This document shows positions 2,275 through 28,513 of a stretch of 32,000 nucleotides of DNA, one piece after another. Source of the stretch: an uncultured archaeon (GTDB lineage Archaea > Asgardarchaeota > Thorarchaeia > Thorarchaeales > Thorarchaeaceae); assembly GCA_964648855.1 (NCBI GenBank), contig CAZYLT010000001.1:330001-362000 (forward strand), read 5' to 3'. The notes under the pieces were generated by a model, which searched no databases, had not been told where the DNA came from, and worked only from the letters and a program-made list of their open reading frames with translations. Both the position numbers and the translations under genes were made by a program. The stretch's first letter is position 1. Every line of letters starts with the position of its first letter.

Positions 2275-3422
2275 TCCTGAGTCACCTTCACTACCCGGTC
2301 TGTACAACTCATGCAGGGGTCAATCGAGGATGCAAGTACTGGAATATCAGCCAACTCGCCGCCTTTCATCATGGTTTCCATGCTGATGACGTTCGCTAAG
2401 GTCGGCGACCTTACTTTCAATCGTTCCAACCCCTGCTTACCATCTGTCTTGACATAGTGAATAAGCTCTCCCCTTGGCGCCTCTACTCGAGAGACCGCCT
2501 CACCGGCGGGAATGCTTCGCATGCGCTTCTGGCTGCTTCCTTCGACAACGATTGGTCCGTTCGGCAATTCATCAAGAACTGCCCTGATAATCTTTGCAGA
2601 CTCGAATATCTCAAGATTTCTTACTTGGGTCCTCGCAAGGCTGTCCCCCGCTTCGGCCAGTATCAAATCGAAAGTATCTTCTAGGTCCTCATATGCTGCG
2701 TAGGGGTCATTTTTCCGGACATCAATTGGTACACCCGAAGCTCTTGCTGTTGGACCTACTACACAAAGATCTTTAGCAAGCTGGGTGGTGAGAACGCCGA
2801 CGCCTTCAAGCCTCTTTTTTGCGGTGCGGTCTGCATATACGTCCTGAATGTAGACTGCAGATTTTTCTATTTCAGTCAAATATGACCTAATTTTCTGTGA
2901 AATCGCAGCATCAATGTCATACCGCACTCCACCAATCGTATTCATGCCGTAGTGTATCCTGTTCCCAGTTATTTCCTCAAACAAGTCATTAATCTTCTCC
3001 CTGTGCTTGAAGGAGTACATGAATAAGGTATCAAATCCAATTTCATAAGCCATGACTCCGAGCCACAGAATGTGACTCTGGATGCGTTCCATCTCTGAGA
3101 TAAGCACTCGTAGATACTTAGCACGTGCAGGCACATCAAGGCCGCCTATCTCTTCAATCGCATGAATGTAACAAGTTGAATGACAGTTTGAGCATATTCC
3201 ACATATACGCTCTGTAAGGAATATGTTTTGCATCAAATTCCGTGTCTCAGCCAATGCCTCTATCCCGCGATGAACAAAACCAACTCGTAGATTTACTGCA
3301 TCAATGCGGTCTTTCTTAAGAGAGATATTGAATTGAATTGGCTCTTTGAAAGCCGGATGGACCGGCCCAACAGGAATCCGAGCTTCTCGGGTTTCAATTT
3401 GTTCTTTGCTATTCGTTGTCAT
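2271..3422 (-). CDS. Group 4 [NiFe]-hydrogenase large subunit
   Basis: GPVHP, HRGIE, L1 motif RICGICSNCH, EAPRGE, L2 motif DPCMSCTDR; all four metal-binding Cys present; start uncertain (3422 or 3437). Confidence 0.95.
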   Translation of the reverse strand: MTTNSKEQIETREARIPVGPVHPAFKEPIQFNISLKKDRIDAVNLRVGFVHRGIEALAETRNLMQNIFLTERICGICSNCHSTCYIHAIEEIGGLDVPARAKYLRVLISEMERIQSHILWLGVMAYEIGFDTLFMYSFKHREKINDLFEEITGNRIHYGMNTIGGVRYDIDAAISQKIRSYLTEIEKSAVYIQDVYADRTAKKRLEGVGVLTTQLAKDLCVVGPTARASGVPIDVRKNDPYAAYEDLEDTFDLILAEAGDSLARTQVRNLEIFESAKIIRAVLDELPNGPIVVEGSSQKRMRSIPAGEAVSRVEAPRGELIHYVKTDGKQGLERLKVRSPTLANVISMETMMKGGELADIPVLASSIDPCMSCTDRVVKVTQE

Positions 3423-3849
3423 CCCTATCAGACCCATATTTTTTCTCCAAGGCTTTCAATACGCCATCCATAATTGCTTCTGGCTTAGGCGGACATCCGG
3501 GAACGTATGCATCCACAGGCAAGAATCTATCGACAGGACCCTCTACCATGTCACTTCCGAAGAAAGGACCAGTCGACAATGCGCATGCACCTATGGCAAC
3601 AATGGCTTTTGGTTCGGGTATCTGGTCATACGTCATTATTGCTCGCTTCACCATTTGTCGTGTCATCGGACCTGAAATCAGCAGCACATCAGCATGACGA
3701 GGGGTTCCTACCAATACACAGCCCAGCTGTTCCAAGTCGAATCTAGGTGTCAAGGATGCCACAATTTCAATATCGCATCCATTGCATGACCCTGTATTGA
3801 TATGGAATAGCCATGGAGATTTTAGCCTGCTTTTTCGTGTAATGCTCAT
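3409..3849 (-). CDS. Group 4 [NiFe]-hydrogenase small subunit (NuoB/EchC/MbhJ-like)
   Basis: SPW, SCNGCDIE, PRHADVL, GAC, VPGCPPKPE; start 3849 or 3888. Confidence 0.95.
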   Translation of the reverse strand: MSITRKSRLKSPWLFHINTGSCNGCDIEIVASLTPRFDLEQLGCVLVGTPRHADVLLISGPMTRQMVKRAIMTYDQIPEPKAIVAIGACALSTGPFFGSDMVEGPVDRFLPVDAYVPGCPPKPEAIMDGVLKALEKKYGSDRDDNE

Positions 3850-4107
3850 CGTGTTTTGCCTGCTATTTTGTCTTGGATGGGTGACCATACTCGGAAAGGC
3901 ATAAAACGATTGTCAAATGATACTCCACTTTTTGATATTTGAGTTGATATTTCATCTTTGATTTCAGCTGAATACCTGTAGTACTACAATACTCAACATG
4001 AGTCATTTGGTGATTACATCAGACGAGCAGGCATGCGTGAACGCTGACCCACACATCTCAACCTGTTGCAGAGGGGATTGCAGTGGTTAGAGTACTGATA
4101 ACTGCGT

Positions 4108-9265: not shown

Positions 9266-11080
9266 ATGAAAGGATACAGGGGAAGAATACTGCGAGTTAA
9301 TCTCAGTACATCGAAAACCTCCATACAGGATATGGACGAGAATCTGGCAAGGCGGTTTATTGGCGGAGCAGGACTTGGCTGTAGATTGTTGTACGACATG
9401 GTGGACAAAGACACTGACCCCTTAGGGCCAGCGAATCCCTTGATATTCATGACCGGCCCATTCTGTGGCACCTTGGTTCCCACAGGCAGCAAAGCATCTC
9501 TATGTGCACGTTCACCTTACACCGGTCTCTTGGGATACAGTACCTTCGGGGGGCACCTAGGTGCCGACATCAAGTTCGCCGGTTATGATGGCATCATTGT
9601 TACGGGTCAGGCGAACGAACCCAGTTATATTCTGGTAGAAGATGACAATGTCGAAATTAAGGATGCAAAAGAAATCTGGGGAACAGATACGCAGGTAACA
9701 TGGGACACTCTCAAAGAGGAAACGGGGTATAGGAATGCTGGAGTTGCACGTATAGGAATCGCAGGCGAAAATCTCGTCAAATTTGCCAGTGTTATCATAG
9801 ACCATTACCGTGCAGCAGGACGCACCGGTATGGGGGCGGTAATGGGCTCAAAGAAATTGAAGGCATTAGTTGTGAAGGGCAACAACAGAAGAGTTCCAGT
9901 TCATGATGAAGAACTGAGAGAATACACTGCAACTCTAAACAGTGACAAAAGAGATGACCCCACATTTGTCATGTATTCTGATTTAGGCACTGCAGGCTTC
10001 GTAGATATGGCCAGCATTATGTATGGTTCTTTGCCAGCAGGATACTATACGATGTCTGATTTCGATACATACAACATCAGCGGGACTACTATGCGTGAGG
10101 AAATCCTCATCGGAAAATCAGCATGCTATCGTTGTCCTATTGGGTGCGGTAGAAGAATCAAAATTGAAGACGGAAAATACGCCACAGGAGAATTCGCTGG
10201 GCCAGAGCTTGAAATAACCGGTACTATGGGGTCTCTCATTCTGAACAATAATCTAGATGCTTTAGCATATATCAGCAAGCAGTTCGATCTACTTGGCATT
10301 GATTTCATCTCCGGTGGCAATACTATAGCATTTGTCTACTATCTATTTCAGGAAGGGATTCTCACAGGGAACAATCTCGATGGCGTGGAGCCTAAATGGG
10401 GAGAGGTTGAAAGCGCACTAGCACTATTGGATAAGATAGCGAAAAGAGAGGGAATAGGCGATCTTCTTGCTGAGGGAAGCAAGTCTTTCGGAGCTGAATA
10501 CGGCGTTGAAGAACTAGCGGCACAAGTGAATGGACTAGAGCTTCCTCAGCACGACCCACGTGGATTCTCGGGCATGGCAATAGCCTATGCCACCTCCCCG
10601 CGTGGAGCTTGTCATATGAGTGCTGATATGTATAACGTTCAAATGGGTCAGCAGAATGAGGCTCTGGACATTGTAAGCGAGGATAGATTCGCTAATGAAG
10701 CAGATTTGGCTGCCAAGCAACAGGACTTCAGATGCGTGACTAACTCTGCGGTAATCTGCAATTTCTACCCAATAAAGGCCGAAGAACTTGCTATACTCCT
10801 GCAGAAAGTTACTGGGTGGGACTATTCTGTAGCGGAATTAGCAATGACTGGTGAGAGAATATTTACTCTCATGAGATTACTCAATCTAAGACTTGGGTAC
10901 TCGACTAAAAATGAACGACTCCCCGAGATTATATTGAAACCTTTGGAAGGGCCGACTGAGGGCTATGTGCCCGATATAGACGCACAGCTTTCTACATGGT
11001 ACAATTATCGCAAGTGGAGTCCGAATACGGGCGAGCCCAGCGCAGAAAAACTGAGAATCCTGGGTCTCGCAGATATTTGA
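9266..11080 (+). CDS. aor: Aldehyde:ferredoxin oxidoreductase family (W/Mo-pterin)
   Basis: GY.GRILRVNLS, AGRTGMGAVMGSKKLKA, CYRCPIGC, DLLGID, HDPR, RGACH. Confidence 0.93.
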   Translation: MKGYRGRILRVNLSTSKTSIQDMDENLARRFIGGAGLGCRLLYDMVDKDTDPLGPANPLIFMTGPFCGTLVPTGSKASLCARSPYTGLLGYSTFGGHLGADIKFAGYDGIIVTGQANEPSYILVEDDNVEIKDAKEIWGTDTQVTWDTLKEETGYRNAGVARIGIAGENLVKFASVIIDHYRAAGRTGMGAVMGSKKLKALVVKGNNRRVPVHDEELREYTATLNSDKRDDPTFVMYSDLGTAGFVDMASIMYGSLPAGYYTMSDFDTYNISGTTMREEILIGKSACYRCPIGCGRRIKIEDGKYATGEFAGPELEITGTMGSLILNNNLDALAYISKQFDLLGIDFISGGNTIAFVYYLFQEGILTGNNLDGVEPKWGEVESALALLDKIAKREGIGDLLAEGSKSFGAEYGVEELAAQVNGLELPQHDPRGFSGMAIAYATSPRGACHMSADMYNVQMGQQNEALDIVSEDRFANEADLAAKQQDFRCVTNSAVICNFYPIKAEELAILLQKVTGWDYSVAELAMTGERIFTLMRLLNLRLGYSTKNERLPEIILKPLEGPTEGYVPDIDAQLSTWYNYRKWSPNTGEPSAEKLRILGLADI

Positions 11081-13655: not shown

Positions 13656-14375
13656 ATGGAAAGTAAATTCAGTAGTCCGTTAAGCAGTCCTCTGTATCCC
13701 CCTCCACCCTACCATTACGAGAATGCAAGATTGTTTCTTTCATTATTCTATCCATCAGAGGATTCAGTTCAAACCCTTCTGCCAAAGCCCCTAATGCCCT
13801 CACAACTTCCGCTCATGGCCTTGCTTGTTGCGGAACAGCCGTGCAAAGAAACAGGTACCTTCATGGAGGCAGGCATACTCGTACAATGCATGTTTGACAA
13901 TCGCGAGTCGGGTGAAGAAGAGGTGGGCGTCTACTTCGCTCAGAACTTCGTTGATTCGGATATCGCTCTGGCTGCAGGGAGAGAGATTTGGGGCTATCCG
14001 AGAAAGCTGGCGAATATCTCTTTAGATTTGAAAGGAGATATGCTGAATGCAAAAGTCGTGCGAAACGGCAATATCTTACTCGAAACAATGTGCGAGCTCA
14101 CCGATGAAGGAGAATGGATTGATAGCGGCCCCAATATCAATGCCAAAATATTACCAGAAGTGGGTGGTTCCAGCCACTCCATATTATCTCTGACCGCCAC
14201 ATATCTCACATATGATATAAAGAATGGGCGCTCTGGTGATGTGCAAATAGACATTCAAGGTACACCTGATAACGGACTTGATGTCATTGAGATTGAGAGT
14301 TCCATGATCGGACTCTATTTTGATTGCGACATAACTGTCCCAGCAGGAAAAGAAATCGCCAAGTTAGAGCTATAG
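13656..14375 (+). CDS. Acetoacetate decarboxylase-like (Adc) family protein
   Basis: PL.SPLYPPPPY, LLPKPL, AAGREIWGYPRK; start 13638 or 13656. Confidence 0.85.
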   Translation: MESKFSSPLSSPLYPPPPYHYENARLFLSLFYPSEDSVQTLLPKPLMPSQLPLMALLVAEQPCKETGTFMEAGILVQCMFDNRESGEEEVGVYFAQNFVDSDIALAAGREIWGYPRKLANISLDLKGDMLNAKVVRNGNILLETMCELTDEGEWIDSGPNINAKILPEVGGSSHSILSLTATYLTYDIKNGRSGDVQIDIQGTPDNGLDVIEIESSMIGLYFDCDITVPAGKEIAKLEL

Positions 14376-16088
14376 ATACTCGCTCGCGTCCATTTTAGCC
14401 AATTTCAGACCAGCAAGCCTAGTGTTACGCCTAAAGAGAAGGTAGCATATCAGTGCAAAACCGGGTAGAGCAAGGTATGTGTAAAGCACATTCATGGTCA
14501 GCCCAATCGAAATCATCCCGAAAATCCCAATATAGCCCAGTAGCAGAGGGAAAATCAGAGCTCGCACCAGACTCCATATTGATATCGGCATTTGGGTTGA
14601 AGAGCCGCGCTGTCTCTCGATTTGACGCTCTGCCTTGAATTCCCCTCCATCTGCTGCTGCATAAGCGGCACTCGCACCTGATGCCATTGTCAAGAATAGC
14701 AGACCAATTGTGATGGCAGGAAGATACAGTAGCAAAATAGGAGTCAGGAAGTAGATGAAGACCGAGGTTATGACTCCGGCACCAATGGTAAATGGAAGAG
14801 CACTATACACTTTTCCCTTGAGATAATCCTGCAGATTTACACTCGCAAGCTGAAGGTTCATAATGTTATCGCCCTCATAGACTGTTTCCAATCCAGCAAA
14901 GTAATAACCATATGCGAGAGCAATTGGAATCACTGCGGATATCATTAGGTAAGGAGTGAATGCAAATATCATTTCTCCGCCTGCAAATGCTGGTAGAATT
15001 ATCCAGATTACATATCTAATGGGACCTAGGAGATACTGAGTCAATACTCTCGCTTCTCGTCTTATGGTCGAGATATTGTACCATACTGATGCACTGATCG
15101 TTTGATTGAACTTGATGCCCGGTATTGGCTGTGGATCCCAGGTGGAGTGGTCTACGGGTGCAGCTTTCTTGGGTGTGCGTTTCTCTGCTGATGCAAGCCA
15201 GCCACTGTAATGTGCTTTTTCGCTAGCGATAGCGGTTAGATAAAGAAGGCCAACCGAGAGAAATCCATAGAAAATCGCCATAGCCAAATCCTGAATCGGG
15301 ATAGGGAGTCCTACAAGAGTACGTAGTGTTATTGAGCTTGCAGCGTAGCCGGGTGTGAGGTCTGATGAGAATCCTAAGGATTGGAGAATATCAAATACAC
15401 CCGTGAAGAGTCCAAATCCAAAACCGCCATCGGAAAGATAGAATGATGCATACCAAAGTGTACCACCGATTATCCCAGCAGCAGTGAGTATAGCATAGCC
15501 AACCTGTTTCAGTCTTCTTCGCCCCGCCACTAGCCTAGAAACCCCGAGGCCAAGTAGTCCACCAAAAGATACCCCAATAGCTATCAGCAAATACATTGAC
15601 AGAAGAAATACAGGAATAGATATGAAAGCAAAGAGAGCTGGAGACAGTATACTAAACCCAGCAAAAATCGACCCTCCAATCACCAACCAGAAAATGCTGT
15701 TGTAGAATACCGTAATGATGACCTTCTCCAAGAACAGAGTTCGGAGAGAGATGGGCATAACCATCAGATACTCCATTCGAGAGCTATTCGCAACTGTTGA
15801 AGCCATGACAGCAGTAGAGCCCAGAAAAGAGAATAACATGAGTGTGTTGAAAATTGTTGCTCCAAGCCCAGGATTTTCAGTAGCAACAGAACGTGCCAAG
15901 GGCCACAATGGTCTCCCGGGAAAAACAATGAAGAGTGTGATGATTACTGCGATAGCAATAGCTATCACCAATCTCGAAGATCTCTTCCAAAGAGGCTCAA
16001 GTTCAGTGCGTTTTCCGCCAGGATTCATAAAACGAAATGTTCTGGACAAATCTTGCCTGAGGAGGAAAATCAAATCAGATATGTTCAA
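14370..16088 (-). CDS. Large ABC-2-type exporter permease
   Basis: About 12 hydrophobic segments in two halves, MEYLMVMPIS...LF.EK motif; 4-bp overlap with the upstream ABC ATPase. Confidence 0.75.
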   Translation of the reverse strand: MNISDLIFLLRQDLSRTFRFMNPGGKRTELEPLWKRSSRLVIAIAIAVIITLFIVFPGRPLWPLARSVATENPGLGATIFNTLMLFSFLGSTAVMASTVANSSRMEYLMVMPISLRTLFLEKVIITVFYNSIFWLVIGGSIFAGFSILSPALFAFISIPVFLLSMYLLIAIGVSFGGLLGLGVSRLVAGRRRLKQVGYAILTAAGIIGGTLWYASFYLSDGGFGFGLFTGVFDILQSLGFSSDLTPGYAASSITLRTLVGLPIPIQDLAMAIFYGFLSVGLLYLTAIASEKAHYSGWLASAEKRTPKKAAPVDHSTWDPQPIPGIKFNQTISASVWYNISTIRREARVLTQYLLGPIRYVIWIILPAFAGGEMIFAFTPYLMISAVIPIALAYGYYFAGLETVYEGDNIMNLQLASVNLQDYLKGKVYSALPFTIGAGVITSVFIYFLTPILLLYLPAITIGLLFLTMASGASAAYAAADGGEFKAERQIERQRGSSTQMPISIWSLVRALIFPLLLGYIGIFGMISIGLTMNVLYTYLALPGFALICYLLFRRNTRLAGLKLAKMDASEYL

Positions 16089-16858
16089 TTCCTCTCACCA
16101 GAATCTTCAAGGTAACTCGCAATTAATTGCATATCGGGTCCACCAGTAAGCTCCAGGAAAATTTCTTCAAGAGAAGACTGACCTTCAGCCTTTTCGCGCA
16201 GCTCATCCAGAGTACCTTCGGCAATCATCTTGCCATCTTTAATTATTCCAACTCTATCGCACATTTGTTCTGCAATCTCTAGCACATGAGTAGACATGAG
16301 AATTGATGCCCCTCGCTTTCGCAGACCGTTGAGAATTTCTTTGACAGTTGCCGCACCCCGAGGATCTATACCTGCTTGTACTTCATCTAGAATCAAAACC
16401 TGAGGTCTATGAACGAGAGCAGCAACCAAGCTTACCTTCCGTGTCATACCCTGTGAATATGTTTCAATGAGGTCATCGCTGGCATCCATGATATCAAGCA
16501 GTTCGAGGAGTTCCTCAATGTCTTCCGTTCTTTCTTCTCCTCGCTTGACCCTCCAAATATCTGCCACATAATTCACATATTCCCAACCAGTTAAGCGCTC
16601 AGGGAGTACGGGGTTTTCTGGAACATATCCTGTAACCCTCTTTGCCTTTACAATTTCATCCCTTATGCCATGACCGTTTATTTTGGCTGTTCCCTCTGTC
16701 GGCTTAAGCAGGCCTAGAAGCATTCGCATCGTCGTTGATTTGCCAGACCCATTTGGCCCGAGTAGGCCGTAAATTTCTCCAGAATTTACTGTGAACGAGA
16801 GATGGTCTACCGCGACAAAGTCCCCAAACTTCTTTGTAAGCTCAACAGCCTCAATCAT
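16085..16858 (-). CDS. ABC transporter ATP-binding protein
   Basis: Walker A GPNGSGKST, signature YSQGM, Walker B ILDE, H-loop STH. Confidence 0.95.
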   Translation of the reverse strand: MIEAVELTKKFGDFVAVDHLSFTVNSGEIYGLLGPNGSGKSTTMRMLLGLLKPTEGTAKINGHGIRDEIVKAKRVTGYVPENPVLPERLTGWEYVNYVADIWRVKRGEERTEDIEELLELLDIMDASDDLIETYSQGMTRKVSLVAALVHRPQVLILDEVQAGIDPRGAATVKEILNGLRKRGASILMSTHVLEIAEQMCDRVGIIKDGKMIAEGTLDELREKAEGQSSLEEIFLELTGGPDMQLIASYLEDSGERN

Positions 16859-16945: not shown

Positions 16946-16988
16946 GAGAGTCTAAATCCTCAGAGAGCACGTCAGAGGAGTATTGGCA

Positions 16989-18116
16989 ATGGCAAGTGAG
17001 GCGTCTGAAGAGAAAAGAAAGAACCAAAGCAAAGAATCGCCCGAGTATGTTAGGACGAGTCTTGCTGCCGCAATGACCATGAACAAGCTCCCAGGAAAAT
17101 TCTATCGTGATGCAAAACTCTACTGCATCAATCTCCTTTTGACTTATGATGAAGGATGCCATGCAAGATGTGCGTATTGTGGTCTCTCAAACTCTCGAGA
17201 AGTGGATACGGATTGGGTGGACAACAGCTTCATCAGGGTTGACTGGCCAATTTATCCTCTCAACGAAGTGAAAGAGGCACTATCAGATGGAACTTGCCCG
17301 CATGTAGAGAGAGTCTGTGTCTCGATGATAACACTAGGTTGTGCTCGAGAGGACTGTTTTAAGGTCGTTTCAGAGTTAAGAGAGGTAATCCCGCAGATTT
17401 CGGTCTTAATCACACCGACCATTTTGAATGAGAATTGGCTGATTAGAGCCAAGGAGGCTGGAGCAGACAAGGTGGGTATCGCAGTAGATGCTGCCACTCC
17501 AGAACTATTTGAGAAGCTGCGGGGAAACGGAGTCAACGGCCCCCACAAGTGGAAGAAATATTGGCAAACCGTTGAGGAAGCAGTTGAAGTATTTGGTAAA
17601 GAGAATGTTGGAATTCATTTGATAGTTGGAGTTGGAGAGACCGAAAAGGAGATGGTTGATGCAATACAACGTGCCCAAGACCTTGGCGCTGACACCCATC
17701 TCTTTTCTTTTTTCCCAGAAGAGGGTTCAGATATGCAAGACGATCCACAGCCACCTCTGGGTACGTACCGTCGGATTCAGGCTGCACGATATCTGATAAA
17801 TAACGAATTAACCTCTGCAAAGAGAATGCAATTCAATAATCAAGGTCAGATTACAGATTTTGGCATCAGCAAGACCGAGTACAATCAAATGATGTCTGAG
17901 GGAAAGGCATTCATGACCTCGGGTTGCAACGGAACAACCATGGATAATGCATGCAATCGACCCTTTGGAAATTGCACCCCCTATCAGGCCTATATTGGAC
18001 ACTGGAGGAACTTCCCGCTATCCCCTGATAAGGACGATTTGAAAAAGATTGCAGAACAGATACGAGACTACTCATTGAGCTATGAGATGGACGATGACTA
18101 TTTTGAAGATGAATGA
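16989..18116 (+). CDS. lipS2: Radical SAM lipoyl synthase component LipS2
   Basis: CHARCAYC (CX3CX2C), HLIVG.GETE, C-terminal TSGC...CNRP signature; sits in a lipoate ligase cluster. Confidence 0.85.
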   Translation: MASEASEEKRKNQSKESPEYVRTSLAAAMTMNKLPGKFYRDAKLYCINLLLTYDEGCHARCAYCGLSNSREVDTDWVDNSFIRVDWPIYPLNEVKEALSDGTCPHVERVCVSMITLGCAREDCFKVVSELREVIPQISVLITPTILNENWLIRAKEAGADKVGIAVDAATPELFEKLRGNGVNGPHKWKKYWQTVEEAVEVFGKENVGIHLIVGVGETEKEMVDAIQRAQDLGADTHLFSFFPEEGSDMQDDPQPPLGTYRRIQAARYLINNELTSAKRMQFNNQGQITDFGISKTEYNQMMSEGKAFMTSGCNGTTMDNACNRPFGNCTPYQAYIGHWRNFPLSPDKDDLKKIAEQIRDYSLSYEMDDDYFEDE

Positions 18117-19104
18117 GAGTCTTCTTGAACAGTGCTTCGAAGCAGAGGAGTATGATCTTAAGCCACTCTTTGAGATGGCTTTTGAATTGTCAAGAAAGAA
18201 GTTCTCAGAGGACATTATCTTCTATTCTCCAGGAATGATTCATTATCAGACCGAATTTCATGAGGCAACTGACCCATTTAGGTTTCCAAGCATCTCAATA
18301 ACTGGTAATTCTTGTGCCATTGGCTGCGAGCATTGTAGAGGAAGGCTTCTAGAAAGCATGATACATGCCACTACTCCAGAGGATCTCTGGAGAATCTGTG
18401 AAGAAATTGTCAGAAAGGGAGGCTCAGGGTGTCTGATAAGCGGTGGTTCAACTTCGCGAGGCAACACACCCTTGGAGCAGTTCATACCAATAATAGAGAG
18501 AGTAAAATCCGACTTAGACCTCAATGTCGTTGTCCACACAGGAATAGTATATCCCGAGATTGCTGAGGAACTTGGTCGAGCGGGAATAGATGGAGCCATG
18601 CTTGATATTATTGGCTCACACCAAACCTTGGAAGAGATTTACCACCTCGATATGCCAGTGAGCATATTTGAGGACTCCATGCGACTTCTTAATGAGTATA
18701 ATGTTCCAATGATGCCACATATTATTGCTGGGCTATACCATGGGAAGCTCAATGGTGAGGACCAGGCAATCCGAATGATTGGAAAATATAATCCGGATTC
18801 AATAGTGATTGTTGCCTTTATGCCGCTCGATGACACCCCAATGGAAAAAACGAATCCAGCGACACCCATGGATATAGCGAGGGTGGTACTTGGAGCGCGG
18901 TTGTACATTCAGGACCGCCCAGTCGTTCTTGGGTGTGCACGACCTCTTGGTCTACATCGTAGAAGCCTAGACCGACTTGCTATCGATGCGGGAGTGAATG
19001 CCATAGCCTACCCTACTGAAGAAGGATACTCCTATGCAAAGAAGAGAAACCTATCAATCGGTTTATCGGACCAATGTTGTTCCTTGATAACTAAAAAACT
19101 GTGA
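18109..19104 (+). CDS. lipS1: Radical SAM lipoyl synthase component LipS1
   Basis: SITG.SCAIGCEHC, GCLISGG, LGCARP and terminal CC signatures. Confidence 0.87.
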   Translation: MNESLLEQCFEAEEYDLKPLFEMAFELSRKKFSEDIIFYSPGMIHYQTEFHEATDPFRFPSISITGNSCAIGCEHCRGRLLESMIHATTPEDLWRICEEIVRKGGSGCLISGGSTSRGNTPLEQFIPIIERVKSDLDLNVVVHTGIVYPEIAEELGRAGIDGAMLDIIGSHQTLEEIYHLDMPVSIFEDSMRLLNEYNVPMMPHIIAGLYHGKLNGEDQAIRMIGKYNPDSIVIVAFMPLDDTPMEKTNPATPMDIARVVLGARLYIQDRPVVLGCARPLGLHRRSLDRLAIDAGVNAIAYPTEEGYSYAKKRNLSIGLSDQCCSLITKKL

Positions 19105-19108
19105 TAGC

Positions 19109-20737
19109 ATGAACAGAAATGACTTCGACAAATGGCGTCTCATTGACACAGGCATTTTGACAGGTGCCCAAAATATGGCCCTTGACGACGTCATCCTCGA
19201 GTGCCATGCGTACGAGAATACTCCGAATACCATAAGATTCCTTCAGTTCAATCCATCCACTGCATTGGTAGGATATCACCAATCGATTGAACAAGAAATC
19301 AGAATCGATTTTTGTAAACACCATGGCATAGATATAAACCGACGACTTACGGGAGGAGGAGCCATCTTGTTTACGCCGACATGTCTTGGTTGGGAAGTCT
19401 TCGCAGATAAGTCGGTGTCAAGGATTAGAGATTTGAGAACTGACCTCGATAAACTTGCCCAATTAATCTGCGAAGGAACAGTAAGAGGACTTCAAGAATT
19501 GGGAATAGAAGCAGAGTTCAGACCCAAGAATGATATCGAGGTCAATGGACGAAAAATCTCTGGGACTGGGGGGACTGAACGAGAGGATTCGTTCATGTAC
19601 CAGGGAACATTACTCGTAGATTTTGATGTCGAGCTGATGCTAAGAGCGCTTAGAATTCCTGTAGAGAAACTGCAGGATAAGGAAATTGAAAGCGTGAAAG
19701 AGAGAGTGACATGTCTGAAGTGGGAGTTAGGCCGGGTTCCACCGTTAGCGGATATTAAGCGAGCGATAGCTGATGGATTTCAGGAGGTTCTTGACATTCA
19801 ACTGCAGGACAGGGGATTGTATCCAATTGAGTCGGAAATGTATAATCAAAAACTCCCCGAATTCGAATCTGAAGATTGGATAAACATGGTGAGAAAGCCT
19901 CTTGACTGGGCGGGAACCGTAAGCACGATGCGAAAGACCCCAGGAGGATTGATCAGGGCGTCTCTTTCAATAGATATCCCAGGCAACTATATTGTGAGTT
20001 CCTTCATTACAGGAGATTTCCAGGTATTTCCCCAGAGAGCTATCATGGACTTGGAGTCAACGTTAAAGAATTCAGACGCAAGCTATGCATCCATCAGAAA
20101 CAACATACTGGACTTTTTCGAGTCTTCAAGAACCAGAATTTTCGGAATACCTCCTGAAATCGTAGCAGATACGATAATTGAAGCAGTGAAGAAAAAGTCC
20201 TTCGTCAACTACGGCTTTACATTGGATGACTCAAATCAATTGATGACCGTGAACTTCTTGCCTGATGAGTTGGAACAACAGCATTTTGATTTCGTGTTGT
20301 TGCCGTATTGTGCTAAACTCCTAGGCTGCGAGTATCGGTTTGTCGAAGGATGTTCAATGTGTGGCGGATGTTCTACCAACGATGTCTATAAACAGATTAC
20401 CGAGCTGAATGTCCCCGTTAGAACAATCCAGAACTTCGAAGATCTTGTGGAGACAGTTCACGAGTTTAAAGAAAAGGGGGCGCGTGGCTACGTTGGTTCT
20501 TGCTGTGATGCCTTCTACAGTAAGCATTACCAGGATTTCGTTGACATGGGCGTACCTGCTCTTCTAGTTGACGTAGATGATTCGACATGTTATGACTTAG
20601 GAGAGGAAGAAAAGGCATACGAAGGAACTTTCGAGGGACAGACGGTGCTGAAAACTGACCTAATATTGAAGGTTATCAATACGCTAACAAATATGGGAAT
20701 ACTCCACAGTGGGGTGGTTCAACATCGCTCAGTATGA
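19109..20737 (+). CDS. lplA: Lipoate/octanoate-protein ligase (LplA catalytic plus C-terminal accessory domain) fused to a Cys-rich DUF116-like domain
   Basis: NMALD, RRLTGGGA, NDIEVNGRKISG, K.PGGLIR...ITGDF, then LLPYCAK..GC....GCSMCGGC...GSCC...STCY. Confidence 0.88.
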   Translation: MNRNDFDKWRLIDTGILTGAQNMALDDVILECHAYENTPNTIRFLQFNPSTALVGYHQSIEQEIRIDFCKHHGIDINRRLTGGGAILFTPTCLGWEVFADKSVSRIRDLRTDLDKLAQLICEGTVRGLQELGIEAEFRPKNDIEVNGRKISGTGGTEREDSFMYQGTLLVDFDVELMLRALRIPVEKLQDKEIESVKERVTCLKWELGRVPPLADIKRAIADGFQEVLDIQLQDRGLYPIESEMYNQKLPEFESEDWINMVRKPLDWAGTVSTMRKTPGGLIRASLSIDIPGNYIVSSFITGDFQVFPQRAIMDLESTLKNSDASYASIRNNILDFFESSRTRIFGIPPEIVADTIIEAVKKKSFVNYGFTLDDSNQLMTVNFLPDELEQQHFDFVLLPYCAKLLGCEYRFVEGCSMCGGCSTNDVYKQITELNVPVRTIQNFEDLVETVHEFKEKGARGYVGSCCDAFYSKHYQDFVDMGVPALLVDVDDSTCYDLGEEEKAYEGTFEGQTVLKTDLILKVINTLTNMGILHSGVVQHRSV

Positions 20738-21776
20738 TGTCGTCGTAGTTGGAGGAGGCCCCTCCGGCGCAGTTACTTCGCTTCTTCTGGCAAAAGATGG
20801 CATGAAGGTCCTCCTACTTGAAAAGGGACATGAAAAAAGGCACAAAGCCTGTGGAGGAGTATTGCCTTCTGTTGCCCCTGATACCATTGAAGACATAATA
20901 GACTCGGAAATTCCTGAGGAGGTTTTCGAAAATCCGAGAGAATTGGGTCTCTACTACGTTCCTCCAAGCGGGCCTAATAGTGGAGGTAGAGTTCGAAACT
21001 ACACCATTCATAATATAAATCGAACCCGTTTCGATTTTTGGTTACGCGAGTTAGCTGAAGAGGCAGAAGTGGAAATCCGATACAACACAAAAGCCACTTC
21101 AGTTTCAATAAATGAGAAGTCAACTAGGGTATCAATTCAGGGGCAGAAGGCAACTATCGAAACGCCTATTCTGGTTGGTGCAGATGGAGTAAGGTCGACT
21201 GTTCGTAAATCCCTTTTTTCCGACACCAATGTTCCAATCATGGTCGTGGGCCAAGAGAAATGGATTGCGAAAGGAGATTTTGAAGACTGCTTTTACGGAT
21301 TCTTTCATGACAAATATTCAGTAGCTTATGCATACCTGATACCCAAACAAGATAGTATCCTCATTGGTCTTGGTGTGGAACCAAACAGAAAGCCAAGTTA
21401 TGCGGAATCGCTAGATAGCTTTCGTTCAATGCTAATTGATGAGTTCTCGTTTGCCCCTGAAAAGATTGTTCGAAGGGAAAGTTGGGCAATTCCATTTGGA
21501 TATTTCATGCCAGGTAAAGAGAATGCGATACTGGTCGGTGATGCTGCAGGGCTCTGTAATCCATTGTCTGGAGAGGGGATTAGATTGGCAATTGAGTCAG
21601 CGGAGTCAGCAGCCAATATCATTGCACATGCAGATCAATCTAAAATCATAGAAGATTATCAGCATGAGGTGAAAGGACTAGCTGATATGATTAATGACCT
21701 CAATGATTTTGTAAGAGGGCTTGATAACGAAAAACGCGAACAATTTGTCTCAGAGGAACTATCAAGAGGATTCTGA
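20709..21776 (+). CDS. FAD/NAD(P)-dependent oxidoreductase of the geranylgeranyl reductase family; LipT-like by context
   Basis: YDVVVVGGGPSG, KACGG, GADG, VGDAAG.CNPLSGEGI. Confidence 0.85.
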   Translation: MGWFNIAQYDVVVVGGGPSGAVTSLLLAKDGMKVLLLEKGHEKRHKACGGVLPSVAPDTIEDIIDSEIPEEVFENPRELGLYYVPPSGPNSGGRVRNYTIHNINRTRFDFWLRELAEEAEVEIRYNTKATSVSINEKSTRVSIQGQKATIETPILVGADGVRSTVRKSLFSDTNVPIMVVGQEKWIAKGDFEDCFYGFFHDKYSVAYAYLIPKQDSILIGLGVEPNRKPSYAESLDSFRSMLIDEFSFAPEKIVRRESWAIPFGYFMPGKENAILVGDAAGLCNPLSGEGIRLAIESAESAANIIAHADQSKIIEDYQHEVKGLADMINDLNDFVRGLDNEKREQFVSEELSRGF

Positions 21777-21824
21777 TAGCAAGAGATATAGTTGCCAATC
21801 GCACACATTCTTTTTGTGTCCACT

Positions 21825-22916
21825 ATGAAAGAGCGATGGCGATTACTTGATTTGGGCGCTATTGAACCGCTTGAAACACAAATTATCTATGATATGGTTG
21901 CTCAAGGGATTACAGAGGGAGAATCACAGAATACAATCATCATTTGCTGGCCCGCTGAGCCCTTAGTTAGTGTAGGCTATTTCCAAGAGATTGAGAAGGA
22001 TATAGACCTTGCATTTTGCCGGAAAAACGATATTGTGGTGACACGCCGTGTAATCGGGGGTGGAGGAGTCTACCTAGATGATGGACAGCTATTCTACCAA
22101 TTAATTGGGCGAGTTGATAGTCCAACTACGCCAAAGCCCATTGATGCCTATTATCGGAAATTTCTCAAAGCACCAGTTCAAGCATATAGGAATCTTGGCA
22201 TTGAAGCTGAATTTCGACCAGTTAATGATATTCAGGTCAATGAAAAGAAAATATCAGGAAATGGAGCAGGAGATGTTGGTGATGCTCGCATTCTCACCGG
22301 CAACATAATTTTAGATTTTGACTTCGAAATGATGGTGAAGGTTCTTCGAGTACCAAGTGAGAAATTTCGGGATAAAGTATACAAGAGCCTCAAAGACCGG
22401 CTGTCAACAATTCTACTTGAAACTGGATCAATGCCACAAAAAGACGAGATTAAAACCGACCTAATCAGGCTTTACGAGGAAACCCTTGACATTGAACTTG
22501 AGAAGGGCAAGTTATCTTCATGGGAAAAGAGCAGGATGTCAGAGCTCCGCTCCAAATACAAGTCAAATGAGTGGCTTCACTGGAGGAGTGGAGGCAGACT
22601 TGATGCTCGAACTGTTAGAATATCCGCAACAGCCTCTGTTGGTACAGCGAGCCATAAGGCCGAAGGCGGGTTGATTCGGGTGACTGCAGAGGAGATAGAA
22701 AATGAGATCAATGAAATTGTCATTAGTGGAGATTTCTTCATGCTTCCGTCCACAGCAATCGGAGAACTTGAGAACAACCTGAAGGGCTCTACTCTTTCTA
22801 GAGACGCGATACTGGAAAGAATTAAGGAAAGCTATACTCAGCTGGATATTGATTCGCCAGGAGTCAAGCCAGAAGATATTGCTGATGCGATTGAGTTGGC
22901 CTTCGAACAAAAGTAA
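21825..22916 (+). CDS. lplA: Second lipoate-protein ligase (LplA catalytic plus accessory domain)
   Basis: VSVGYFQ, RRVIGGGGVYLD..QLFYQ, NDIQVN.KKISG, HKAEGGLIR, ISGDFF. Confidence 0.9.
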   Translation: MKERWRLLDLGAIEPLETQIIYDMVAQGITEGESQNTIIICWPAEPLVSVGYFQEIEKDIDLAFCRKNDIVVTRRVIGGGGVYLDDGQLFYQLIGRVDSPTTPKPIDAYYRKFLKAPVQAYRNLGIEAEFRPVNDIQVNEKKISGNGAGDVGDARILTGNIILDFDFEMMVKVLRVPSEKFRDKVYKSLKDRLSTILLETGSMPQKDEIKTDLIRLYEETLDIELEKGKLSSWEKSRMSELRSKYKSNEWLHWRSGGRLDARTVRISATASVGTASHKAEGGLIRVTAEEIENEINEIVISGDFFMLPSTAIGELENNLKGSTLSRDAILERIKESYTQLDIDSPGVKPEDIADAIELAFEQK

Positions 22917-24064: not shown

Positions 24065-25627
24065 TTAGTCGCTCGATGCAAGATCTTCCATTCTGCGTTC
24101 AACTATGCCAAGTATTTCGTCTTTGAGATTCTCGCTCTCTTCAATGAGCTCCTCAACTTCCTTTCGAATGTTCTTGACGAATTTCTCGTCCTTAATATTG
24201 TCAAGATTTATTCTGACATTGAGAGATGCTGCCTTGATTGCGGCTGAGAGTGCATATGCAGCGCCGCCAGCATCAGTTATGGCATTGATATTGCCCTTCT
24301 CTGCAGCAACTTTTGCATGAGTGAGTGCCTCATATGATTGCTTCATGGTTTCTAATGGAATCTCAGCAGCATGAATTGTTGCTTCCTCTACGGCTTCTTC
24401 TTTCGTTTGTTTTTCCTCTTCATTTCCTTCAGGAAGCTTATAAGTTTCCATCACTTTTTCAAAGGCTTCAGAGTCCTTCTCAACCATGTCCAGCAGAACA
24501 CCCCTGTTTGTTTCACAGGCATGTCGATGATCAAGCATCTCCTTTTTGATTGCAGCAAATTTTCTTCCAGTCAATGAGAGACCTGTGACCATGCATACAA
24601 GAGCCGCGCCATAAGAGCCCATAACTGCAGCAACACTTCCTCCACCAGGAGTTGCTCTGGCTCGTCGCACCTGATTCCCGAATTCGATTAAGGACATTTC
24701 AGTGAACGACTTCTCAGTGGGCTCTTCAGCACCACCAAGATAATACAAATCGAGAATCATTGATTCATCGAGATTCTCTGGTTGCAGATAGTACTTGAGA
24801 GCGTCAATCAAAGCGAAGAGAGGTACCATTCCAATAATCTCGGTTTCAACGACAGTGGCACCAAAACGTTTCGCTTCGTTCCTCACAACTTCAAGAACCT
24901 GATGTATCTTGGTTCTCTTGGGATGGGTGAGATTGCATGAAACCTGAACCATTCCCTTATCCGGCAAGTCCAGGCCAATACCTTGCACATACACAAAGCC
25001 ACCAGTGGTTGCTCTAACTGCATTCGCACAGACCTTTGCTACCTCAACATTAGTTGTATTAAGGTTGAAATTGATTGCAATCAGGAAGAATCGTGCTCCG
25101 GTAGCAGTGGCACCAGCTGTTGGATTGATTTTGTTAGGGCCATAATCAGGAGTCCTACTCTCATCCTCTCCGATGGTTTCACGAAGCCCTTCAAATTCTC
25201 CTTGACGAATATTAGGCAATTCTTCTCGTTCAGGACGCGTTGCGGATTTCTCATAGAGGTATACGGGTACATCATGCTTCTCAGAATATTCCTTGGCGAA
25301 TTCTTTTGACAGCTCTATACACTCGCCAATGGTTACTCCGTGTAGCGGAATGAAAGGAACAACATCAACTGCGCCCATTCGAGGGTGAGCTCCCTCGTGT
25401 TTGCTCATGTCAATTCGTTCTACTGCAACATCCGCTGCCTTCAGAGCTGCCTGTTTAACCTTCTGTGGTTCTCCTATGAATGTGAATACCGACCTGTTGT
25501 GATCAGGGTCATATTCAACATTAAGAAGACGAACACCATCAACGCTCTTGATGGCATCAGCCAATTCATCAATTACCTCTTTTCGACGACCCTCGCTGAA
25601 ATTGGGTACACATTCGACAACCTTCAT
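24065..25627 (-). CDS. ftcD: Bifunctional glutamate formiminotransferase / formiminotetrahydrofolate cyclodeaminase
   Basis: ECVPNFSEGR, DHNRSVFT, HPRMGAVDVVPF, followed in frame by TPGGGSVAA...NVRINL cyclodeaminase domain. Confidence 0.92.
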   Translation of the reverse strand: MKVVECVPNFSEGRRKEVIDELADAIKSVDGVRLLNVEYDPDHNRSVFTFIGEPQKVKQAALKAADVAVERIDMSKHEGAHPRMGAVDVVPFIPLHGVTIGECIELSKEFAKEYSEKHDVPVYLYEKSATRPEREELPNIRQGEFEGLRETIGEDESRTPDYGPNKINPTAGATATGARFFLIAINFNLNTTNVEVAKVCANAVRATTGGFVYVQGIGLDLPDKGMVQVSCNLTHPKRTKIHQVLEVVRNEAKRFGATVVETEIIGMVPLFALIDALKYYLQPENLDESMILDLYYLGGAEEPTEKSFTEMSLIEFGNQVRRARATPGGGSVAAVMGSYGAALVCMVTGLSLTGRKFAAIKKEMLDHRHACETNRGVLLDMVEKDSEAFEKVMETYKLPEGNEEEKQTKEEAVEEATIHAAEIPLETMKQSYEALTHAKVAAEKGNINAITDAGGAAYALSAAIKAASLNVRINLDNIKDEKFVKNIRKEVEELIEESENLKDEILGIVERRMEDLASSD

Positions 25628-25766
25628 GCGTGTCACCAAGCCCGTCGGATAAGTTCAAGCAAAAAAGCATTTGGGAATCGGGGGTTTAGTCGAAAAATGA
25701 TGTCAGATAGGCAAAAAAGAGACGCGAATTGCACATCTGGTCATTTCTTGTTCCAAGCAGCTAGGG

Positions 25767-26702
25767 TTAGCTTGTATATCCACCATAATCTATGGCGTCG
25801 ACAATGAAGACATTGGTCTGGTTCTGCAGATACGTATAGGCTGCAAGTACATTTCTGAGTAACATGGCAATAGTCATTGGCCCCACACCACCAGGTACCG
25901 GAGTAATGTAAGATGCTTTCTCCTTAACAGTTTCAAAATCGACATCACCCTTTGGCGTAGCCACATCTATGACAATTGCACCCTCTTTAACCATCTCTTC
26001 AGTGATAAAATACGGGTCGTCATTGGATTCCCGAAGTCCAACCGCAGTGACAAGAATATCTGCTTGCTTAGTCATACTTGAGATGTCCTTGGTCTTCGAA
26101 TGGCAAACGGAAACCGTAATGTCTCTGTCAAGCAACATGAAAATTAGTGGTTTGCCGACTATAGTAGATCGGTTAATGATGACCGCGTCTTTTCCTTTCA
26201 AATCAACCGGTAGTAAATCCAGCATCGTGACAATACCTTGAGGAGTCGCAGCACTCAAGAATTCATTCCCATGGAATAACCGATATATGTTCCTCGGGGA
26301 AAATCCATCAACATCTTTACCAGGCGATATTGCATCAATAACCTCCTCTTCATCGATATGACTTGGCAGAGGCAACTGTACGAGTATACCATGAACATCA
26401 CGGTCTTGATTGAGTTCCTGTATCAGGTCGATAAGCTCCTCTTCGGTCGTGTTCCCCGGTAAATCATGGGTTTCGGAAAGAATACCGGCCTTTTCACAGG
26501 CTCGCTGTTTCATACGCACATACATTTTGGACCCTGGGTCCTCACCAACAATAATGGCGACTAGCTTTGGCGGTGTTCCGTGTACCTCAGTCAGATGCTG
26601 AACTTCTTCCTTGATGTGCTGTCGTATCTTTTTTGCCAGAGTCTTGCCGTCAATGACTTTTCCTTCTACGAATTCCTCAAGTGCAATGTCGTATTCGCTC
26701 AT
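25767..26702 (-). CDS. folD: Methylene-THF dehydrogenase / cyclohydrolase
   Basis: IDGK, YVRMK, GILVQLPLP, KDVDGF, RS.IVGKP, TPVPGGVGPMT. Confidence 0.95.
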   Translation of the reverse strand: MSEYDIALEEFVEGKVIDGKTLAKKIRQHIKEEVQHLTEVHGTPPKLVAIIVGEDPGSKMYVRMKQRACEKAGILSETHDLPGNTTEEELIDLIQELNQDRDVHGILVQLPLPSHIDEEEVIDAISPGKDVDGFSPRNIYRLFHGNEFLSAATPQGIVTMLDLLPVDLKGKDAVIINRSTIVGKPLIFMLLDRDITVSVCHSKTKDISSMTKQADILVTAVGLRESNDDPYFITEEMVKEGAIVIDVATPKGDVDFETVKEKASYITPVPGGVGPMTIAMLLRNVLAAYTYLQNQTNVFIVDAIDYGGYTS

Positions 26703-26713
26703 GTTGAATCCTC

Positions 26714-28309
26714 CTAAAATACGCCTGATATGTTGCCATCCTCATCTATGTCCATCTCTTCTGCCGCGGGATCAGATGGGAGTCCAGGCATCAACATGAC
26801 ATCTCCAGTGTACACAATAACAAAACCAGCACCAGCGCTGACATCAGCTCCACGTACGGTTAAGACGAAATCTTCCGGTCGCCCCTTCTTGCGAGGATCA
26901 TCACTGAGGCTGAATTGTGTCTTCGCCATGCATATTGGGAGCTCACCATGCCCACGTTTCTTCAACGACCATAGTTCTCCATTGGCATTATCTATGTACC
27001 TGACACCCTTTGCTCCATAGATACTCTTGGCAACCTTCTCAATTTTCACTTTGAGGTCTTCATCGACATCATAGGTGTAATTCACTTCGTTTCGAGTTCC
27101 TGTAATATCAAGTACTGCCTTCGCCATATCCTTTCCACCCTCGCTACCCTTGGCAAATACCTCTGAAACCTCCATCCTCCATCCCTTTTTCTCGCAGAAT
27201 TCCCGTACTTCTGCAATCTCCCCATCAGTATCATCAGGGAATCGGTTCACAGCAATTGCAAATGAAGGACCAAAGTTTTGGATGTTCTCTGCATGTTTCG
27301 CCAGATTTGGTAAGCCCTTCTTGAGGTCATCATCACCCTGCTCTTTCAGGGCTCTTATGCTGGTGATGATCACAACTCCGTCGACATTAAGGTTGCCAGC
27401 ACGAGTGACGATGTTCATAAATTTCTCAGCACCGAGATCTGCTCCAAATCCTGCCTCGACTACCACATAGTCAAATAGACGCAGTGCAATGTCAATCGAC
27501 ATTATTGAGTTCGTTCCATGGGCTATGTTTGCAAAGGGGCCGATGTGAATGAGGGCTGGTGTTCCCTCAGATGTCTGTACCAGATTCGGCTTTAGGGCAT
27601 CCTTCAACAAGACAGCCATTGCACCGTTCGCATTGATATCTTTGGCATATACTTCATTGAGGTCGTAATCTCGAGAGAGCAAAATATTGCCAAGCCGCTC
27701 CTTTAGGTCGGTATAGCTATTTGCCAAAGCCATTATTGCCATGATTTCGGAGGCAGCTGTAATTACATAGCTATCCTCTCTTGGAAACCCATTGTCCTTT
27801 CCGCCAAGGCCGACAACGACTTTTCTTAACGCCCGGTCATTCATGTCTATCGTTCTTGTCCAGTAGACTCTTCGTGGATCAATGCCTGCTTCATTCCCTT
27901 TGTTCACATGATTATCCAGCATTGCAGACAGAAGGTTGTGTGCTGCGGATATAGCTGGAAAATCCCCGGTGAATAGGAGGTTAATCTTCTCAAAAGGATG
28001 AACTTCTGATTTACCACCGCCAGCGGCACCGCCCTTGATTCCAAAAACGGGACCCAGTGATGGTTCACGAAGTGTCACCACTGCGCTCTTCCCGAGAGCA
28101 TTGAGCGACATAGACAAGCCTATAGAGTTTGTAGTCTTACCCTCTCCCGCGGAGGTCGGAGTGGTGGCAGTTACAAGAATCAGTTTTCCTTTCCGTTCTC
28201 CAAGCTCCTTCCGAATATTGAGATTGATTTTGGCCATGTGTTTTCCATAGGGTTCGAGATACTTTTCAGGAATTCCTGCCTCTTCTGCGACTTCAGTAAT
28301 GGGTTTCAT
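26714..28309 (-). CDS. fhs: Formate--tetrahydrofolate ligase
   Basis: TPTSAGEGKTT, REPSLGP.FGIKGGAAGGG, GPFANIAHG, EAGFGADLGAEKF, MAKTQFS, MPGLP. Confidence 0.96.
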   Translation of the reverse strand: MKPITEVAEEAGIPEKYLEPYGKHMAKINLNIRKELGERKGKLILVTATTPTSAGEGKTTNSIGLSMSLNALGKSAVVTLREPSLGPVFGIKGGAAGGGKSEVHPFEKINLLFTGDFPAISAAHNLLSAMLDNHVNKGNEAGIDPRRVYWTRTIDMNDRALRKVVVGLGGKDNGFPREDSYVITAASEIMAIMALANSYTDLKERLGNILLSRDYDLNEVYAKDINANGAMAVLLKDALKPNLVQTSEGTPALIHIGPFANIAHGTNSIMSIDIALRLFDYVVVEAGFGADLGAEKFMNIVTRAGNLNVDGVVIITSIRALKEQGDDDLKKGLPNLAKHAENIQNFGPSFAIAVNRFPDDTDGEIAEVREFCEKKGWRMEVSEVFAKGSEGGKDMAKAVLDITGTRNEVNYTYDVDEDLKVKIEKVAKSIYGAKGVRYIDNANGELWSLKKRGHGELPICMAKTQFSLSDDPRKKGRPEDFVLTVRGADVSAGAGFVIVYTGDVMLMPGLPSDPAAEEMDIDEDGNISGVF

Positions 28310-28513
28310 TTTTCCTACACCAGTGAAAGTAAACTTTTGATTAGTTGTTCCAATCAGTGCAAGTATTGACTGATAAAATGCACCGTATGGCTGTAGAGGC
28401 GGTTTGGTCAATCATGGTTGTGTCAGAAATGCACTCTTTTACAAAAGGTCTTGGCAATTATTACTGAAAAAAAGATGAGGCAGGGTGTTTATCCGCCTAT
28501 TGGGCTGAGAAAT

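Follow-up and report, generated by a model that had tools for sequence, protein, structure and literature searches.

Why would a lipoate ligase carry a cysteine-rich tail? The question is raised by a 542-amino-acid (aa) protein encoded in a contig of an uncultured Thorarchaeaceae archaeon (CAZYLT010000001.1, positions 330,001 to 362,000; the 32,000 nucleotides (nt) analyzed here are called the window). Its open reading frame (ORF; 19109–20737, plus strand) lies within a run of five closely packed genes (16983–22916, plus strand) encoding LipS2, LipS1, the 542-aa ligase, a LipT-like flavoprotein, and a second ligase of 374 aa. Behind its ligase part stands an eight-Cys domain of the DUF116 family, which we regard as a candidate for the redox helper that the lipoyl synthases LipS1/LipS2 still lack. 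The electron supply of these synthases and the restoration of their auxiliary clusters are described as open questions in a 2026 review (PMC13692748), and for LipT a role in electron delivery has been called "possibly" the case (PMC10332631). Ligase and pathway are known; a strictly conserved accessory domain on the ligase is undescribed. No description of an Lpl(AB)-DUF116 fusion was found in the literature on DUF116/COG1852/PF01976/arCOG02078 or on sLpl(AB)/LipS/LipT, a 2026 ligase preprint included.

The Pfam DUF116 model (PF01976) matches residues 394–496 (nt 20288–20596) with 27.4 bits in the full protein, against a cut-off of 25. The score is 29.7 bits for the excised domain, 28.8–40.9 bits in relatives, and 29.9 bits in a genome scan, in which the window copy is the sole DUF116 of its genome. 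The tail follows the pattern LLPYCAK..GC..GCSMCGGC..GSCC..STCY, and its eight Cys are residues 401, 407, 415, 418, 421, 465, 466, and 494 (nt 20309–20590; codons at 20309, 20327, 20351, 20360, 20369, 20501, 20504, and 20588), in the order CxxCxxC-x43-CC-x27-C; residues 1–369 hold just five Cys. The original prediction had placed a DUF116-like eight-Cys domain behind the ligase and accessory domains from position 20200 onward, absent from the second ligase, overlapped by the LipT-like gene, and of no assigned function. ORF and Pfam analysis bears out this description, with the boundary drawn here at 20216, about 16 nt further downstream. The LipT-like gene starts at a GTG (20709) and overlaps the end of the ligase gene by 29 nt. 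As for function, the only paper found on the family offers a comparative-genomics prediction: this 2015 study described DUF116 as flavodoxin-like, metal-binding, and electron-transferring, with at least six Cys including CxxCxxC (PMC5898192).

The Cys set is strongly conserved. All eight are invariant in 18 relatives at 45–80% identity; among 120 cluster representatives at 27–48% identity, six Cys never vary, nor do P399 and Y400, and conservation of the remaining two Cys reaches at least 90%. Species-representative genomes were also scanned with a degenerate DNA pattern, which matched at least 120 stretches, 118 of them encoding the domain; the counts describe a sample biased to the LxPYCAK motif, with two of the eight Cys imposed by the pattern. 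Among these listed loci, all eight Cys are kept in 114/114 complete domains. Such conservation argues that the Cys set is more than chance. A profile of the tail gave 220 matches among 1.84 billion representative proteins, 123 of them at E <= 1e-30, and the strong matches are nearly all Lpl(AB) fusions of about 510–560 aa, which NCBI labels "DUF116 domain-containing" or "lipoate-protein ligase family." Homologues bear the name Candidatus Thorarchaeota, in line with an Asgard source. A gene-calling artifact was ruled out, because the reading frame stays open in 35 Asgard genomes and in over 100 others.

Canonical DUF116 proteins (COG1852/arCOG02078, e.g., MMP0162; PMC5898192) share with the window domain the Pfam family, seven Cys, and a flavodoxin-like fold. 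The seven Cys columns, CxxCxxC included, are common to the window domain and four canonical Asgard DUF116 proteins of 190–220 aa, whereas C465, the first of the CC pair, is peculiar to the ligase-associated subfamily, which also has an extra conserved C-terminal AYxGxF motif. Canonical members span about 190–230 aa and are described with two N-terminal transmembrane helices; the window protein lacks these helices of the arCOG02078 description, its domain being preceded by LplA and LplB domains instead, and represents a fused, soluble-type variant. The subfamily profile matches canonical DUF116 weakly (E 1e-4 to 1e-7). Two other family assignments were tried and rejected: membership in the ferredoxin family had no hidden Markov model support, and the HdrB-type CCG domain (PF02754) gave no match at E up to 10, its Cys order (Cx31-39CCx35-36CxxC) also being different. 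Searching PDB sequences with the domain profile gave chance-level matches only (eL43 zinc ribbon, E 0.015; HCAR 5DQR, E 0.62), and a word search of short proteins returned fragments only.

An AlphaFold 2 model of the domain, built on a 120-row alignment, reached a predicted local distance difference test score of 93.1 and a predicted template modeling score of 0.87. Its topology is beta-alpha-beta-alpha-beta-alpha-beta with four parallel strands, flavodoxin- or Rossmann-like. In the model, C401–C421 lie in a long loop after strand 1, C465 and C466 directly after strand 3, and C494 after strand 4, which puts all eight at the C-terminal edge of the sheet. This edge is the cofactor site of flavodoxin-like folds and holds flavin mononucleotide (FMN) in flavodoxin. 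The modeled topology suggests that the eight Cys would be near one another in space. Foldseek of the domain model against the PDB gave nothing at E <= 0.001, and VIA-align retrieved generic Rossmann/flavodoxin-like chains and response-regulator receivers, with a best Z of 8.1 to a designed protein; by fold or sequence search of the PDB, no solved relative of the domain was found. These generic matches agree with the HHpred result reported earlier (PMC5898192).

The remainder of the chain is unremarkable. LplA-B_cat (PF21948) covers residues 20–225 (156.8 bits), and an LplB-type accessory domain covers residues 276–359; the accessory region scores 29.8 bits against NF053749, below the 65-bit cut-off, and matches PDB 3R07_C at E 6.6e-5. 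The sLpl(AB)-type motifs NRRLTGGGAI and NGRKISGTGG (the catalytic Lys motif) are intact, PDB sequence matches include the LplA entries 1VQZ, 2ARS, and 3R07 and the LplB chain 3R07_C, and Foldseek gives template modeling scores of 0.83–0.87 to solved LplA, with ~360 columns aligned to full-length LplA at 0.83–0.86. Judged by sequence and fold, the N-terminal 365 residues, 46% identical to an unfused bacterial operon sLpl(AB), are a normal ligase with predicted ATP-dependent octanoyl/lipoyl transfer to GcvH or LbpA. With the sLpl(AB) of the LipS1/LipS2-LipT pathway (Thioalkalivibrio TK90_0642; Cao 2018, Tanabe 2023 PMC10332631), it has clade, motifs, and the lipS/lipT gene set in common; characterized sLpl(AB) stop after the LplB domain, whereas the window ligase adds ~170 residues with eight Cys, and unlike the characterized systems, the window operon also encodes a second, distant ligase. 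The bifunctional LplA-LipA fusion (NCBIfam NF053790) is a precedent for ligase and sulfur-insertion machinery on one chain. That fusion includes the radical S-adenosylmethionine (SAM) synthase itself, whereas the domain added here is not radical-SAM, and the window ligase part scores 96 bits against NF053790, far under the 800-bit cut-off.

Carriers of the domain span more than 20 bacterial and archaeal phyla. The archaeal carriers are Thor-, Heimdall-, Hod-, Borr-, Sif-, and Jordarchaeia, Bathyarchaeota, Thermoplasmatota, and Methanobacteriota, and the bacterial ones Thermodesulfobacteriota, Myxococcota, Chloroflexota, Bacillota, Actinomycetota, Nitrospinota, Caldisericota, Aquificota, and Pseudomonadota, lineages that we take to be largely anaerobes or microaerophiles. 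By record title, cultured carriers include Desulfovibrio desulfuricans, Sporomusa silvacetica, Pelosinus fermentans, and Acidithiobacillus ferrianus. Across the 118 loci listed, lipT, lipS1, or lipS2 occurs in the same 8-kb locus in 68, LipT is directly downstream of or fused to the domain in 50, and a gene for a GcvH/LbpA acceptor is nearby in 11. Natural Lpl(AB)-DUF116-LipT fusions exist (P0091/P0216, L081); in P0091/P0216, a radical-SAM gene and a TusA gene follow the fusion gene. In Aquificota, the ligase-DUF116 chain extends into a CdhB-like domain (PF02552, CO dehydrogenase/acetyl-CoA synthase (ACS) epsilon) at ten of the loci listed, two genomes having split forms in which a separate ligase gene is followed by a DUF116-CdhB gene. 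A DUF116-CdhB-like fusion also occurs in P0183, P0190, and P0186, and a 1117-aa ligase-ligase-DUF116-CdhB protein has TusA, DsrE, LbpA, LipS1, LipT, LipS2, and LipY as neighbors. Published gene maps of model organisms, Aquifex aeolicus included, give "cdhB" in the legend without explanation. Sporomusa silvacetica encodes the domain as a gene of its own, 194 codons long and the last in the operon gcvH-lpl(AB)-lipT-lipS2-lipS1, which argues that the domain is a module in its own right.

The association with LipT is especially tight in Asgard archaea. In a sample of 201 genomes (LipT threshold E <= 1e-70), a strong domain match was found in 35, LipS1 in 139, and LipT in 27. All 27 LipT-bearing genomes are among the 35 with the domain (27/27), the two genes abut in 23 of the 27, and LipT occurs in 0/166 genomes that lack the domain. 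Domain-bearing Asgard genomes usually encode two LipS1 copies, one at 2–5.5 kb from the domain (22 cases). In one Asgard genome, the LipT orthologue adjoining the domain gene (G016:C176:7097–8146, minus strand) reads through one in-frame TGA, for which sequencing error, pseudogene formation, or recoding are possible causes. In the genome of the window itself, LipS1 is present in two copies, alongside four LplA-type catalytic domains and two GcvH-type acceptors. One candidate acceptor (P0356) adjoins gcvT and has the motif ESMKA; the other (P0355) stands alone, with the motif ESGKW and zero Cys. Their isoelectric points (4.9 vs 4.1) are not decisive for substrate choice. Given these copies across the genome, the window cluster looks like a self-contained second lipoylation module, which fits the bacteria-to-Thorarchaeota ligase transfers reported previously (PMC10332631).

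In a tree of 94 ligase parts, two clades separate with 98% local support. The motifs of clade A are canonical; this clade includes the window protein, with unfused bacterial sLpl(AB) nested inside. Clade B (47 tree members) is entirely fused, its motifs are degenerate, and about 15 of 59 representatives carry another residue in place of the catalytic Lys. One clade B member, in a Thioalkalivibrio-like contig, is divergently oriented from a normal lipS1-slpl(AB)-lipT-lipS2 operon. In 20 of the 118 loci listed, of Pseudomonadota type, the clade B gene directly follows ubiT-ubiU-ubiV, the genes of the O2-independent ubiquinone pathway, often with an MnmL/YtqA-type radical-SAM gene beside it; other clade B members stand alone. 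In Acidithiobacillus ferrianus, UbiU, UbiV, and UbiT were confirmed by NCBIfam equivalogs above cut-offs. A clade B-type gene beside ubiTUV is not mentioned in the UbiUVT paper. The presence of the domain in ubiTUV operons implies a module that is not lipoate-specific.

What, then, does the domain do? The best-supported reading, a tentative one, is that it may be an iron-sulfur (Fe-S) redox module that works with LipT and serves LipS1/LipS2. The seven to eight fixed Cys at a cofactor site, the unions with flavin-type domains, and the Fe-S and radical-SAM neighbors suggest a redox role. The eight Cys would bind iron-sulfur, most simply two [4Fe-4S] clusters, with C465 completing a second set of four beyond the seven Cys common to canonical DUF116. 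So equipped, the domain would act as a one-electron relay paired with LipT, a flavin adenine dinucleotide (FAD) protein, or with the CdhB-like domain in Aquificota, and would give LipS2 and LipS1 low-potential electrons for SAM cleavage; the ligase part of the chain would attach octanoate to the acceptor protein and keep that acceptor nearby. The flow may also run in the opposite direction, from the domain into LipT, because LipT keeps geranylgeranyl-reductase motifs. A complex prediction of LipT and the domain with FAD and two [4Fe-4S] clusters scored 0.01 (mark 0.32), a result that is evidence in neither direction as to binding.

In E. coli, radical-SAM enzymes are usually reduced by Fpr/FldA, and LipT plus the domain would be an analogue of this pair of flavodoxin reductase and flavodoxin: a flavoprotein reductase and a small alpha/beta, flavodoxin-like carrier that passes single electrons to radical-SAM clusters. 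The proposed carrier would differ in holding Fe-S on Cys instead of FMN and in its attachment to a ligase. LipT is a member of the geranylgeranyl-reductase family rather than a ferredoxin-NADP reductase, and there is no sequence kinship with Fpr/FldA. Given that UbiU and UbiV are Fe-S enzymes and that a radical-SAM gene is a further neighbor, a general electron relay fits better than a LipS-specific sulfur donor.

Several observations weigh against such a relay. An operon of lipS1-slpl(AB)-lipT-lipS2 that lacks the domain lipoylates LbpA in E. coli (PMC10332631), and 104 of the 139 LipS1-bearing Asgard genomes lack it as well. The ferredoxin-type CxxCxxCxxxCP is absent, the CxxCxxC having no Cys-Pro behind it, and neither Fer4 nor any other Fe-S Pfam family matches the domain at E up to 10. 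The eight Cys could instead hold two structural Zn ions, and LipT, given its retained motifs, may be a hydride reductase with its own substrate. Canonical DUF116 is also fused to isoprenoid-synthase-like domains with no obvious need for an electron relay. Lastly, the Asgard co-occurrence may reflect inheritance of one transferred operon rather than functional pairing, since ligase-lipT adjacency is also found in operons with a domain-free ligase. The co-occurrence with lipS1/lipS2/lipT that the original prediction named as a check holds for LipT (adjacency, 27/27 Asgard genomes, fusions) and for lipS operons, but not for most LipS1-bearing Asgard genomes. The lipoate role it assigned is supported by lipS1/lipS2 operons in many phyla, while the ubiTUV operons and the isoprenoid-synthase-like fusions speak against a role confined to lipoate. 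Its further proposals, Fe-S rather than Zn on the Cys, transfer of electrons or sulfur to LipS1/S2, and a coupling of octanoyl loading to sulfur insertion, stay predictions.

An unlikely reading, though the most probable of the rivals, is a domain that resupplies clusters or sulfur. Here, a transferable Fe-S cluster or sulfide would rebuild the sacrificial auxiliary clusters of LipS2/LipS1, as NfuA/IscU do for LipA, and the ligase tether would bring repair to where the clusters are used. LipS1/S2 are believed to use up an auxiliary cluster whose regeneration route is an open question (PMC13692748), the domain sits in a lipS operon in 68/118 loci listed, and the seven Cys of canonical DUF116 could leave one cluster with an open coordination site. 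The need is the same as in NfuA/IscU repair of LipA (PMC13692748); the family, Cys count, and partner domains differ. No match of the domain to Nfu, IscU, or A-type carrier families was found in Pfam or NCBIfam, a sequence search that is blind to functional analogues. Known Fe-S carriers typically bind through two or three Cys in each subunit, and their labile sites frequently lie where two subunits meet, whereas a monomer with eight invariant Cys is more suggestive of fixed redox centers. Resupply also leaves unexplained the flavin-type fusions, the ubiTUV context, in which cluster sacrifice is not known to occur, and the absence of the domain from most LipS1-bearing Asgard genomes.

A non-redox role appears quite doubtful. 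With structural Zn, or with Fe-S acting as an O2/redox sensor or docking scaffold, the domain would stabilize, oligomerize, or regulate the ligase or recruit partners. It is dispensable in many LipS1/S2 systems, and the degenerate ligase part of clade B, often without the catalytic Lys, suggests a scaffold-like use of the whole protein. Retention of eight Cys in every complete domain listed, across more than 20 phyla, argues otherwise, and the classical cofactor site of a flavodoxin-like fold together with repeated flavin-type fusions would be unusual for structural Zn. Similarly doubtful is a broader version of the favored relay, in which Lpl(AB)-DUF116 would be a regeneration and activation factor: with the octanoylated acceptor held by the ligase domain, the LipT-charged Fe-S domain would both reduce LipS2/LipS1 and resupply their auxiliary clusters, making synthesis catalytic, and DUF116 would be a new class of Cys-ligated Fe-S carrier with a flavodoxin fold, serving radical-SAM and Fe-S enzymes including UbiU/UbiV. 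Most improbable is a disulfide chemistry of the lipoyl arm that depends on Fe-S, similar to that of ferredoxin:thioredoxin reductase (FTR) or HdrB, in which a cluster and the CC pair, with electrons from LipT, would act on the lipoyl disulfide or on a mixed disulfide of the 8-thiol intermediate and keep the ligase-held acceptor in the dithiol state: seven to eight Cys exceed the need of one cluster, the CC pair is specific to the ligase-associated subfamily, and the domain is linked to a flavoprotein and to acceptor genes (GcvH/LbpA, 11 loci listed), but the reading is purely motif-based, neither the CCG domain (PF02754) nor a related one matches at E up to 10, the fold matches listed include zero HdrB or FTR chains, and the ubiTUV context has no disulfide substrate.

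Coordinates of the cluster and of related loci are collected below. The assignments of lipS2 (218.9 bits, E 1e-64, against NF053743; cut-off 270) and lipS1 (209.4 bits, E 7e-62, against NF053742; cut-off 230) fall below the family cut-offs. The lipS1 5' part overlaps the lipS2 3' end, and the true start of lipS2 is probably the ATG at 16989. The LipT-like product scores 176.8 bits against TIGR02032 (GG-red-SF), above the 158.8-bit cut-off; as a geranylgeranyl-reductase-family FAD protein encoded with lipS1/lipS2, in the operon position described before (PMC10332631), it belongs to the LipT family. The two ligases of the cluster are 31% identical, and the second probably starts at ATG 21825.

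Features of the window cluster and of related loci (positions without a prefix are those of the window)
Feature	Position	Strand	Basis
lipS2 (radical SAM lipoyl synthase, C8 sulfur)	16983–18116	+	NCBIfam LipS2 NF053743, Pfam Radical_SAM
lipS1 (radical SAM lipoyl synthase, C6 sulfur)	18082–19104	+	NCBIfam LipS1 NF053742
Lpl(AB) ligase part of fusion protein	19109–20215	+	Pfam PF21948, PDB sequence matches, Foldseek, ligase tree
Eight-Cys DUF116-subfamily domain, residues 370–542	20216–20737	+	Pfam DUF116, Cys conservation, domain model
lipT-like FAD oxidoreductase, geranylgeranyl-reductase family	20709–21776	+	TIGR02032, Pfam FAD_binding_3
Second Lpl(AB) ligase, 374 aa, without Cys domain	21792–22916	+	Pfam PF21948 122.2 bits, Lip_prot_lig_C 31.9 bits
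Second LipS1 of the same genome	C2:177537–178340		
Two further LplA-type catalytic domains (~270 aa) of the same genome	C17:27116–27730, C1:245134–245769		
Two GcvH-type acceptors of the same genome	C2:92792–93151, C5:73791–74147		
ubiTUV-linked clade B loci	L057:1518–5681 (Acidithiobacillus ferrianus), L073, L082, L087, L124, L126, L134		
Further ubiTUV-linked clade B loci	L139, L142, L143, L151, L155, L041, L042		
Aquificota CdhB-like loci, fused	L098, L110, L112, L115, L121, L128, L138, L158		
Aquificota CdhB-like loci, split	L069, L076		

Other gene arrangements were seen in passing. In other Thorarchaeota (L026:731–2401, minus strand; L027:764–2389, plus strand), a canonical seven-Cys DUF116 is fused to a C-terminal domain of ~330 aa with an isoprenoid-synthase-like DDxxD motif, matching the polyprenyl-synthetase fusions mentioned by Makarova 2015. 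At L007 and L008, the fused ligase gene is followed at a distance of about 3.4–6.6 kb by two SQS_PSY genes and an amine-oxidase gene. Close to the downstream end of the lipoate cluster, window positions 24065–28411 (minus strand) encode a formiminotransferase-cyclodeaminase, FolD, and a formate-tetrahydrofolate ligase, folate one-carbon genes that would fit with a glycine-cleavage link. Positions 14370–16088 (minus strand) hold a 572-aa ORF with zero Pfam matches, in the same direction as and overlapping an ABC-transporter ATPase gene (16085–16858), and its product may be an uncharacterized permease or partner. Farther upstream, complex-I/group-4 hydrogenase-like subunits (NuoH-, NuoD/NiFe-, and NuoB-like) and an aldehyde:ferredoxin oxidoreductase (1321–3888, minus strand, and 9266–11080, plus strand) indicate a ferredoxin-based, anaerobic host metabolism.

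Should the domain bind only Zn, the finding would shrink to an ordinary domain decoration. As it stands, a strictly conserved module tied to the ligase and LipT in more than 20 phyla, with cultured organisms among its carriers, is a concrete protein to purify, and its function would give the first functional handle on DUF116/COG1852. Its recurrence in ubiT-ubiU-ubiV operons hints at a common helper for Fe-S chemistry that proceeds without oxygen.

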